A stretch of 64,000 nucleotides of DNA from Candidatus Atabeyarchaeum deiterrae (GTDB lineage Archaea; Asgardarchaeota; Atabeyarchaeia; Atabeyarchaeales; Atabeyarchaeaceae), in NCBI GenBank assembly GCA_037310415.1, contig CP147780.1:864001-928000 (forward strand), given 5' to 3'. Of this stretch, positions 13,379-36,592 are shown piece by piece. Every line of letters starts with the position of its first letter. Position 1 is the first letter of the stretch. Under the pieces are notes generated by a model. The model made no database searches, was not told the DNA's origin, and saw only the letters and a program-made list of their open reading frames with translations. A program made the translations under genes and the position numbers.

Positions 13379-13412
13379 CCGCAAAGGGGTTCAAATGACC
13401 TTTGCAAAGGTT

Positions 13413-13458
13413 GTCCCCACCGGCCACCTTTTTTGAGGCTTTGCGCCGGCTGGTTCAT
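13413..13458 (-). promoter_or_regulatory. Eukaryote-like type-II SECIS element (proximal) overlapping the vhuU stop codon
   Basis: AUGAA-CCAGCCGGCGC-AAA-GCCU(CAAAAA)AGGU-GGCCGGUGG-GGAC; same architecture as the selD element. Confidence 0.75.
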
Positions 13459-13604
13459 CCGCTTCCAATCTGAACCTCTTTCTTGAGTATCTCCTTGTTG
13501 TTTTCGTCTAAGACAAGGAGATGTGCTGCACACGAAAGTCAACAGTCGTAGCAGCGGACGACCATCTCCAACAGGTTAAGCACTTTCTCATCTACATCGG
13601 GCAT
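13455..13604 (-). CDS. vhuU: Selenocysteine-containing small subunit of F420-non-reducing hydrogenase (49 aa; Sec UGA at 13539-13541)
   Basis: [49 protein letters not shown]; supplies the C-terminal Ni-ligand motif absent from the upstream large subunit; missed by the ORF track. Confidence 0.93.
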
Positions 13605-35001: not shown

Positions 35002-35243
35002 ACCTCTTTAGCTGTAGAATAACTACAATGTGTGTAGAGTGAGATTTCCCCCCATATAATAAGCTTACGCTTTCCATGATAAGAGTGGGAAACAAGAGTC
35101 CAGAATTACTTAACTCGCTTGCATAATTGCTCGTGTCACAATCTGATGAAGCGTCTCTAGCCCCATACTTTTTATTTCAACAATACTCATAAAGTGGTTT
35201 GCCTCATATCTGGTCTGACGAATTACGAAAGGAGGGATAATGC

Positions 35244-36278
35244 TTAGAGAGATTTAGGTTAACCAAGTCAGTTAGAGAGCATGGTTGAAGCTGCAAGATA
35301 CCTCAGAATGAGTTGACCCATCTCCTAGAACGGGCTGGTCTCTCGCAGATCGTCGCCGGTGAGAACATTCTCGCGGGGCCGCTACCAGCTGAAGACGCAG
35401 CCATTATCAAGATAAACGAAGAAACCTGCCTTGTGCAATCACTCGACTTCTTTACACCAATCGTTGATGAACCAATAACCCAAGGAGAGATCACTGCGTG
35501 CAATGTCACTAATGACCTCTATGCCAAAGGTGCCATAAACGTCCTTGGCGTTCTGGTCATCATGGGTTTTCCACCAGAGATGCCCAAGCCGATTGCCGTG
35601 GATCTTCTCAAGGGATTCAGCAACTTCTGTCAAAGACTCGGGACTCAAGTGATTGGCGGCCATACCATAACAAATCCCTGGCCCATTCTTGGAGGAGCAG
35701 CGACTGCGTCAATGAGAATTCGAGACGTAGCATACAAGAAGGGAGTAGAAGCCGGAGATAACTTGATACTTACAAAACCACTCGGAGTTCAACCAGTAAT
35801 GGCTGCATACCGATTGCTTAAGGAAGAAGTTCTCAACGAGGAACTTCTAAGTACAATGTCCCGCAAGACTATCAACGAAGCAATCAAGAAGACGATCAAC
35901 TTGATGACAACGAGTAACAAACCTGTTGCCGAGGCAATGCAGGAAGTCAAGGTAAATGCAGCAACAGACGTGACTGGGTTCGGTCTCGTAGGACATGGAT
36001 CGGAGTTGGCTGAGCAGAGTCACGTCGACTTGGAAATTACGACAATGCCATTGGTGAAGGGGAGCATGCAGATATCGGACATCCTCGGCTACTCGCTCAG
36101 GGATGGGCGCGCTCACGAAACTGCCGGTGGCATGCTGCTTTCTCTCTCGCCTGAGAAAACCGAACAGTTTGTTGAAGTTCTACGTGAGCGCCGGGTTACT
36201 CCCTTCTTGATTGGAAAAGCAAGGGTCGGAACAGGTAAAGTCAAACTCGCTAAGGATCTGCAATATCTAGAAGTCTGA
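35244..36278 (+). CDS. selD: Selenide, water dikinase, Sec-containing (UGA at 35286-35288); start codon non-canonical or uncertain
   Basis: Upstream in-frame LERFRLTKSVREHG-U-SCKIP (UxxK motif), EDAA, DFFTPIVD, DLYAKG, GGHT, LTKPLG, TDVTGFGL.GH, ETAGG. Confidence 0.93.
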
Positions 36279-36289
36279 AGCAGCACTCG

Positions 36290-36332
36290 ATGAAGGGAGA
36301 AAGCAAACTACGAAAGTAGATTTCTTCCTGAA
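36290..36332 (+). promoter_or_regulatory. Eukaryote-like type-II SECIS element in the selD 3' UTR
   Basis: AUGAA-GGGAGAAA-GC-AAA-CUAC(GAAA)GUAG-A-UUUCUUCC-UGAA; outer GAAGCAGC/GCUGCUUC helix. Confidence 0.88.
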
Positions 36333-36592
36333 AGAAGCCAGAAGCGGGCTGGCTGCTTCACAGAACTGTTGTGAGAGATGGGAACCACGCTACCTGGTTA
36401 AATGAACAAAAGCTTCCCAACTTCTCACCAGATTGAGCAACGTTTAAATATTACATGCAATCTTCAACTTCAATCGTTCAACGTCAGGAGAGAAAGCACT
36501 GCATCGGATACTCTGAACGCGGATTAGATCTTTCACGCGTGTTAAGTTCTTACGCAGAACACACACATTCACCGTGGGGTTGAGAAGGAGAA

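Follow-up and report, generated by a model that had tools for sequence, protein, structure and literature searches.

Candidatus Atabeyarchaeum deiterrae, an Asgard archaeon whose genome is a single contig of 2,756,679 bp (CP147780.1), carries a gene for selenophosphate synthetase (selD, also called SPS) in the window considered here, a 64-kb stretch of that contig (positions 864,001 to 928,000). In the window's track of open reading frames (ORFs), selD starts at TTG 35313, 3′ of its catalytic loop. Upstream of this TTG the same frame reads CLERFRLTKSVREHG-TGA-SCKIPQNEL, and with the TGA taken as selenocysteine (Sec, U) the N-terminus becomes C-L-E-R-F-R-L-T-K-S-V-R-E-H-G-U-S-C-K-I-P-Q-N-E-L. 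Behind the gene, 11 nt (36279-89) separate the stop codon from an AUGA that opens a hairpin, and the distance from the Sec codon to this AUGA is 1,004 nt. An initial annotation of this DNA, made from the letters alone, had pointed to the late ORF start, to the frame running upstream through HG-UGA-SCK (35286-35288) and to an element about 1 kb from the UGA. All of this is borne out, and its description of the element, AUGAA-stem-AAA-CUAC(GAAA)GUAG-stem-UGAA lying 11 nt past the stop, is accurate to the base.

The extended 345-residue translation scores 327 bits against the NCBIfam model of SelD (NF010705, cut-off 291) and 243.9 bits against TIGR00476 (cut-off 125). Both AIR-synthase-like domains, PF00586 at the N-terminus and PF02769 at the C-terminus, are present in the precomputed Pfam assignment of the window's SelD protein (P0001). 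Its best match among solved structures is human SEPHS1 (3fd5, E = 6e-44). When RFRLTKSVREHG-U-SCKIPQNEL is aligned to this structure, which has KG-T-GCK, the U falls on the known Sec/Cys/Thr site of the catalytic loop; the alignment with SelD that the initial annotation proposed as a check has this outcome. The N-terminal SelD loop G-[U/C]-x-C-K is found as HG-U-SCK (35280-35297) and is invariant among orthologues. These features support the gene as a Sec-containing selD, whose product would itself be a selenoprotein.

The hairpin behind the gene has the dimensions of a Sec insertion sequence (SECIS) of the type II model described for Asgard archaea (Huang et al., 2024; PMC11227280). That model has a core of 5′-GA...[G/A]A-3′, in most cases AUGA_GA, which is represented here by AUGA (36290-93) and GA (36330-31). 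Its upper stem of 7-15 bp with at most two mismatches corresponds to helix II, which has 9 bp, no mismatch and one G-U pair. The bulge of 4-12 nt measures 6 nt in selD, consisting of GCAAA and an unpaired A at 36320 between the mini-stem and the 3′ strand of helix II, while the mini-stem (2-8 bp in the model, with an apical loop of 2-6 nt) has 4 bp and a 4-nt loop. The model further places the element within 600 nt downstream of a Sec-UGA gene and in orthologues as well; the hairpin of selD is kept in orthologues and lies 11 nt from the gene. The AUGA_AA_GA signature by which eukaryotic SECIS elements are recognized is also present in this stem-loop of the 3′ untranslated region (UTR). By its letters and fold, the element does not have the euryarchaeal GAA_A signature: GAA-GCCAG-loop-CUGGC is followed by U, not A. 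Over the 3′ region (36276-36370, 95 nt) the minimum-energy fold reaches -31 kcal/mol (z = -3.0), and 0 of 200 shuffled sequences fold as well. This anatomy supports a SECIS of the type II-like form that has been defined in Asgard archaea and resembles that of eukaryotes, with a predicted role in recoding. The coordinates of all features are collected in the table below.

Features of the selD locus and of the Sec machinery. Positions are those of the window, except in the last four rows, which give positions on the genome contig (G000:C1); the trio is the window with two relatives, L003 and L032.
Feature	Position	Strand	Basis or remark
Putative TATA box of the selD promoter, TTTTTATTT	35169-35177	+	A-T-rich; similar distance to the ribosome-binding site in the trio
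GGAGG, Shine-Dalgarno-like site	35231-35235	+	AAGGAGG kept in the trio despite saturated synonymous sites
In-frame TAA closing the selD frame upstream	35238-35240	+	TAG in L003 and L032, TAA in L006, at the same relative position
TTA, homologous start-codon position, candidate non-canonical initiation site	35244-35246	+	8 nt after GGAGG
selD (SPS) coding sequence with one Sec codon	35244-36278	+	344 codons plus stop; profile, structure and divergence evidence
UGA read as Sec (HG-U-SCK)	35286-35288	+	In frame; conserved; aligns with the Sec/Cys/Thr position of SEPHS1
selD stop codon UGA, also the first bases of the closing stem	36276-36278	+	Frame and fold
Closing (outer) stem, 5′ strand, UGAAGCAGC	36276-36284	+	Pairs with 36352-36360; fold; kept in L003 and L032
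AUGA, 5′ half of the SECIS core (kink-turn quartet)	36290-36293	+	Invariant in the trio
Helix II, 5′ strand, AGGGAGAAA	36294-36302	+	Pairs with 36321-36329
Unpaired GCAAA bulge with conserved adenines	36303-36307	+	AAA invariant in the trio
Mini-stem CUAC/GUAG with GAAA tetraloop (type II feature)	36308-36319	+	Fold and trio
Helix II, 3′ strand, UUUCUUCCU (DNA TTTCTTCCT)	36321-36329	+	Fold, trio comparison
GA, 3′ half of the SECIS core	36330-36331	+	UGA[AG]A kept in the trio
Second hairpin AGCC-AGAAGCG-GGCU, third arm of the junction	36336-36350	+	Minimum-energy fold
Closing stem, 3′ strand, GCUGCUUCA	36352-36360	+	Fold, trio comparison
PSTK-type kinase	203540-204241	-	114.6 bits
tRNA-Sec	about 208758-208955 (L042:520-716), about 197 nt	+	Outside the window; 0.8 kb from SepSecS
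SepSecS	209739-210863	-	397 bits
EFSec	211584-212486	-	285.9 bits, cut-off 242

A truncated SelD would offer a simpler account of the locus. The TGA at 35286 would then be an assembly error or a true stop, the protein would start at TTG 35313 and the N-terminal part of the frame would be a decaying remnant. Such an account agrees with the gene callers, which start all database relatives after the TGA (281-321 aa in close relatives), and with the lack of any canonical start 5′ of the TGA. However, TGA occupies the same codon of the G-U-x-C-K loop in 21/21 Asgard selD copies read, which come from independent assemblies. At the DNA level it is seen in 14/14 copies, also in two metagenome contigs and also in seven loci of Thor, Hod, Odin or Loki type. 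Among 40 relatives searched, the sister genome (G001, 73% identity) and 11 more genomes have a selD with a single in-frame TGA; one of these, G010, holds two selD copies, and two other genomes have only partial matches without the TGA.

The divergence of the gene is also at odds with a decaying N-terminus. Within the Atabeya-clade trio (the window, L003 and L032) synonymous sites are saturated, with differences of 0.71-0.79, and non-synonymous differences come to 0.15-0.17. Over the 24 codons 5′ of 35313 the non-synonymous value is 0.11-0.12, in line with the remainder of selD. Because this low value stands against saturated synonymous sites, these codons are translated and under purifying selection. 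A protein starting at 35313 would moreover be devoid of the catalytic Sec/Lys loop seen in solved structures, and a contig of the probable source sample, identical to the window over 35100-36450, has the same TGA. Other assembled sequences bear on the locus in part: an independent soil contig matches the SECIS exactly, RNA-library contigs cover 35484-35751 and 36040-36279, and a short contig over 35271-35307 derives from a relative and is uninformative for the TGA. The initial annotation had named TGC or TGT at 35286 as the reading that would overturn it. Neither occurs in the contigs, which do not by themselves amount to independent confirmation; the TGA is independently backed because it is conserved across genomes. 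A truncated SelD is thus largely refuted and is very improbable indeed.

Cysteine-type genes, with TGT or TGC at the Sec codon, are found in five metagenome-assembled genomes (MAGs) of Bathyarchaeia and in one Thermoproteota MAG (L058-L063). Among the matches listed, these are the nearest non-Asgard relatives, with 46-49% identity to Atabeya SelD, and they start at the canonical codons TTG, GTG or ATG. No 3′-UTR fold comparable to that of the window lies behind these six orthologues. The Sec-containing SelD forms of Loki and Thor type are 38-44% identical to Atabeya SelD and are hence farther from it than the Cys-type proteins.

In the Atabeya trio the 3′ element aligns over 92 columns with 88% identity per column, and 98.8% of the cells are paired, as against 35-56% when the partners are slid. 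Helix II has undergone three one-sided pair changes and one two-sided change (G-C to A-U), and L032 retains the mini-stem with GUUA as its loop. AUGA is also found in the selD 3′ UTRs of G040 and of Freya-like, f7 and Loki-like relatives. The minimum-energy fold places the SECIS hairpin in a three-way junction that is closed by a stem beginning at the stop codon. Among 16 folded selD 3′ UTRs the same layout is present in four lineages (the Atabeya trio, G040, a Freya-like pair and a Loki-like group): a closing stem at or just after the stop, the AUGA hairpin with its A-rich bulge and mini-stem, and a second hairpin. The sequences of the closing stem differ wholly from lineage to lineage (GAAGCAGC/GCUGCUUC, GACGG/CCGUC, AGCGGCA/UGCCGCU and UGAUG/CAUCA). 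The second hairpin stands at the same place in relatives with other sequences and shows compensatory changes in the Loki-like group, where RNAalifold recovers from five sequences the same three helices and the mini-stem, with six pairs kept by two-sided changes. In the available portions of three earlier papers (PMC4989117, PMC11227280, PMC11291895), the closing stem and the second hairpin were not found described.

A structure of this kind might serve mainly to end or stabilize the transcript, in which case AUGA, AAA and GA would be there by chance and something else would direct Sec insertion. Pattern matches are indeed weak, as the published loose type II pattern is nonspecific (32 matches in the genome, and 15, 19 and 25 in shuffled sequence), and the second hairpin of the junction has no known role in a SECIS. 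A mainly terminator-like function is nevertheless very unlikely. Against a background of saturated neutral sites, relatives have the core, the adenines and the mini-stem either unchanged or covarying, and the structure accompanies Sec-type selD in four lineages while being unseen behind the Cys-type orthologues. The same motif also lies behind the two other selenoprotein genes checked in the genome, and no run of T follows the stem. The 3′ structure may still combine both roles, SECIS and transcript end.

One of those two genes is vhuU, for which the initial annotation had rightly claimed the same architecture: its element, on the minus strand at about 13386-13465 of the window, has the same layout with the vhuU stop codon inside AUGA. 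The other is vhuD (827015-827383 of the contig, minus strand), which contains two in-frame TGA codons, in CWKU and VGU. Two codons after vhuD lies a type I element (826980, minus strand) of the form AUGA-CUGUCACGA-GUAAACAAUUAUUUG-UCGUGAUGG-GA. The elements of selD, vhuU and vhuD share AUGA, a helix strand of 9-10 nt, G[CU]AAA and GA. When both strands of the genome (5.5 Mb) are scanned with a sharp motif, defined as AUGA, 8-11 nt, G[CU]AAA, a paired return strand and GA, five matches are obtained, two of them directly behind selD and vhuD. The fifth match (832899, minus strand) reads AUGA-UGGGUAGAG-GCAAA...CCUUACCCA-GA; its UGA ends a short ORF of about 53 codons, and no upstream Sec codon was identified. 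A covariance model built from the three Atabeya sequences found those three only and is too sequence-specific for distant elements. De novo SECIS scans for new selenoproteins were set aside as too noisy, with 81 candidates from a helix-plus-AA search, 32 from the type II pattern and 200 from a ranking by RNAfold.

The genome also encodes a machinery for Sec. The genes for EFSec, SepSecS and a PSTK-type kinase lie 0.8-5 kb from a tRNA-Sec gene that appears to be split by three inserts; the initial annotation had staked its call on a tRNA-Sec being present. The tRNA, of the archaeal 9/4 type, has a 9-bp acceptor stem (GGCGCCCGA with UCGGGCGCC) followed by G73 and CCA, and an anticodon arm, ACUGGA-CUUCAAA-UCCGGU, with a UCA anticodon and a 6-bp stem. 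With a 25-nt insert set aside, the T arm (GGAG-UUCGAUU...CUCC) has a 4-bp stem; the T and D stems were read by eye. One insert, of about 38 nt, lies in the D loop and another in the variable arm, and the insert of 25 nt separates the T loop from the 3′ strand of the T stem. In the alignment with G001 and G002, all three Atabeya genomes retain the acceptor stem, the anticodon arm, G73 and CCA.

Tools for finding tRNAs are misleading in this genome, since they miss the real, insert-split tRNA-Sec and call a tRNA-Arg tRNA-SeC. The gene that ARAGORN lists as tRNA-SeC(tca) (246125-246215, plus strand) is rejected both as tRNA-Sec and as an opal suppressor, as it is tRNA-Arg(UCG). It is identical to 243848-243938 (plus strand; tRNA-Trp(cca) according to ARAGORN) except at anticodon position 34. 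In both twins a 13-nt intron at the canonical 37/38 site, bounded by CUCC or CUUC paired with GGGG and two 3-nt bulges, leaves the anticodons CCG and UCG. These are the two Arg isoacceptors otherwise lacking from ARAGORN's partial list of 24 tRNAs, and a separate tRNA-Trp lies at 487340. A match to RF01852 at position 549981 of the contig is likewise no tRNA-Sec; it is an intron-containing tRNA-Val(UAC).

On this evidence it is highly probable that the locus is a Sec-containing selD with an Asgard-type type II SECIS, read by EFSec and tRNA-Sec, and likely that it has a non-canonical start. In the proposed mechanism, UGA 35286 would be read as Sec by the intron-split tRNA-Sec, which EFSec would deliver. 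The recoding signal would be the type II SECIS with its AUGA/GA kink-turn core, 9-bp helix, adenines and mini-stem; from its place in the 3′ UTR it would act across 1 kb, in the manner of SECIS elements of archaea and eukaryotes. Because the closing stem contains the stop codon, a terminating ribosome would have to melt it. Translation would start at the UUA 8 nt behind a strong Shine-Dalgarno (SD) site, which would keep the output of SelD low.

Several points weigh against this interpretation. Sec has been demonstrated only in methanogens and in no Asgard archaeon (PMC9622424), and sbp2 is found in no Asgard genome (PMC11227280). The tRNA-Sec scores 25.9 bits against RF01852, below the gathering score of 47, a low value that is attributed to the inserts, which the model penalises. 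Direct sequence support for the TGA in this species comes from assembled contigs. Covariation among three close sequences is thin, with one compensatory pair and no excess over shuffles. No SECIS family of Rfam reaches its gathering score in the whole window, and the eukaryotic SECIS family RF00031 gives no match at E <= 10 over 36200-36450. The element thus falls outside the eukaryotic SECIS family of Rfam, and the eukaryote-like type II SECIS of the initial annotation stands as a type II element of the Asgard model but not as a match to that family. At the start of the gene, two of the three bases of AUG are changed in UUA as well as in UCG, and the case for initiation there is inferential.

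The search for a start codon is confined to a short interval. An in-frame start farther upstream is ruled out because of the in-frame stop at 35238-35240, and no ATG, GTG or TTG stands in frame between TAA 35238 and the Sec codon. The feature start at 35231 given by the initial annotation has to be abandoned: this position belongs to the GGAGG ribosome-binding site and not to a codon, and ATG 35240 is out of frame. In SD-led genes of this genome, GGAGG ends 8-12 nt before ATG. At the homologous start position, the window and L003 have TTA, L032 has TCG, Thor-like loci have GTG, L033 ATG, and the Freya-like L006 and L007 CTG. This codon is preceded by a stop and one further codon, TAA-TGC in the window and TAG-AAC in both L003 and L032. 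The leaders of Bathyarchaeia Cys-SelD are alike (TGA-AAC-TTG and TGA-AAC-GTG), with their TTG, GTG or ATG one codon nearer to the RLT motif. Initiation at or next to 35244, on a non-canonical UUA at 8 nt from the SD site, is most likely on these comparisons. The broader proposal that selD of Atabeyarchaeia starts at a codon that is not even near-cognate (UUA in two of three genomes, UCG in the other), through a relaxed, position-driven choice, is tentative and has somewhat less than an even chance of being right.

A start at the out-of-frame ATG 35240 would dispense with a UUA start if the ribosome slipped by +1 at CUU-A, or if one base were wrong in the assembly. This ATG does follow the SD site, and CTT-AGA resembles CUU-AGG, the +1 frameshift site of yeast Ty1. 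Yet the ATG is absent from L003 and L032 (GGAGGAATAGAAC), where no ATG, GTG or TTG occurs in any frame near the site, and L032 has CTC-GGA instead of CTT-AGA. The spacing between SD and ATG would be 4 nt, outside the 8-12 nt of this genome, and the contig of the probable source sample, the one run covering this site, shows no indel. Slippage or a one-base error is consequently very improbable, and a start at UUA 35244 remains preferred. Two further routes were considered. Read-through from a mini-ORF beginning at TTG 35199 across TAA 35238 is rejected, as L003 and L032 have no such in-frame ORF. It is also unlikely that a 5′ intron connects the gene to an ATG farther upstream, since the TATA-like box leaves a leader of about 25-35 nt, and no conserved helix is seen.

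Non-AUG starts are known from other systems, such as AUU in E. coli infC and the near-cognate CUG and ACG in eukaryotes. Like selD, these cases have a strong ribosome-binding site at normal spacing before a non-standard codon, and they concern genes that need little product, to which selD may be likened. They differ in that UUA and UCG of selD are two positions away from AUG and that the codon is not conserved in the Atabeya trio.

Similar arrangements are seen elsewhere in the genome. A gene with an NYN domain (about 721408-721884, minus strand; L138:1109-1585) has the leader GGAGG-TAG-AAC-TTA, the same layout as selD; its Pfam domain begins at residue 21, and its first canonical start (ATG) comes at about residue 39. 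Genome-wide, 52 ORFs have GGAGG at start-like spacing and no canonical start. At the start position of these ORFs, ACG occurs 10 times (1.5 expected), TTA three times (0.9 expected) and TCG four times (1.2 expected), an excess that hints at non-canonical starts across the genome. The start of EFSec (about 212504, minus strand; L034) is ambiguous: GAGGAGG is followed after 9 nt by an in-frame CTG, and the first canonical start, a GTG, stands 7 codons past the CTG and only three residues before GHVDHGKT. No support for non-canonical starts is taken from this gene.

Two further observations concern the surroundings and the relatives of selD. In five relatives (L005, L006, L007, L008 and L033), selD has a hairpin insert of 30, 30, 30, 31 and 34 nt, respectively, after the codons for N-D-V-Y. 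The inserts bring a TAA into frame or shift the frame, and they consist of a 4-bp helix (GUGU with GCAU or GCAC), two 3-nt bulges and a covarying inner helix of 8 bp. They are probably introns of the tRNA (bulge-helix-bulge) type in mRNA; selD of the window has no such insert. Upstream of selD, ATATAATAAGCTTACGCTT (35054-35072) is nearly unchanged in the window, L003 and L032 despite saturated neutral sites. It lies about 55-70 nt upstream of a divergent gene for a membrane protein (start 35001, minus strand), of which it is probably the promoter.

Sec-containing selD with a eukaryote-like SECIS is already in the literature, in general as well as for the present genome. The type II-like SECIS of Asgard selD was described in 2016 (Mariotti et al.; PMC4989117) and in 2024 (Huang et al.; PMC11227280), as far as the available text of both papers goes. 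The two complete genomes reported for Atabeyarchaeia measure 2,808,651 and 2,756,679 bp, and the latter is the genome studied here (Valentin-Alvarado et al., 2024; PMC11291895). According to that work, Atabeyarchaeia and Freyarchaeia possess EFSec, Sec tRNA, PSTK, SecS, SPS and multiple eukaryotic-like SECIS elements, with SPS, HdrA, a Prx-like protein and VhuU among the selenoproteins per genome. The SPS call for the genome is thus the same, whereas the main text of that paper, in its available portion, contains neither the anatomy of the selD element nor a comment on its start codon, both of which are treated here. In its main finding the analysis confirms a published annotation, without new biology, and it shows that selD is truncated in mechanical ORF calls. 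What is gained are exact coordinates and an anatomy for the selD SECIS of Atabeyarchaeia, a class missing from the available text of the 2024 Asgard survey. What remains of interest is that a canonical start codon is missing and that the junction starting at the stop codon is conserved. If the non-canonical start were true, it would bear on start-site choice by Asgard ribosomes and on the number of Asgard proteins whose annotation is too short, gene finders would truncate a class of conserved genes, and start-codon selection would look looser than assumed in the relatives of eukaryotes.

The closest known counterparts are the lokiSECIS and eSECIS-like elements of Asgard SPS (PMC4989117, PMC11227280). 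To judge from the available text, they too lie in the 3′ UTR directly behind a Sec-type selD and share the AUGA...GA core, unpaired adenines atop the main stem and an extra mini-stem, and the element here falls within all length limits of 2024. Atabeyarchaeia are mentioned in neither Asgard survey, including that of PMC11227280, as far as their available portions extend, and the bulge here is GCAAA. With the eukaryotic type II SECIS (SEPHS2, RF00031) the element shares the 3′-UTR site, action over about 1 kb, AUGA_AA_GA and an apical mini-stem. It differs in its shorter main stem (judged by the available part of PMC4989117), its distance of 11 nt from the stop, its place in a three-way junction and the absence of an RF00031 match, and SBP2 is absent from Asgard genomes (PMC11227280). 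The SECIS elements of Methanococcales and Methanopyrus have a GAA_A bulge between a lower stem and a G+C-rich upper stem, which the selD element does not. They resemble it in being archaeal, in lying in the 3′ UTR near the gene end and in working with PSTK, SepSecS and an archaeal EFSec. The initial annotation had read the element as long-range 3′-UTR recoding in the manner of eukaryotes; the 3′-UTR position and the reach of about 1 kb hold, but such action is the archaeal norm and is not peculiar to eukaryotes.

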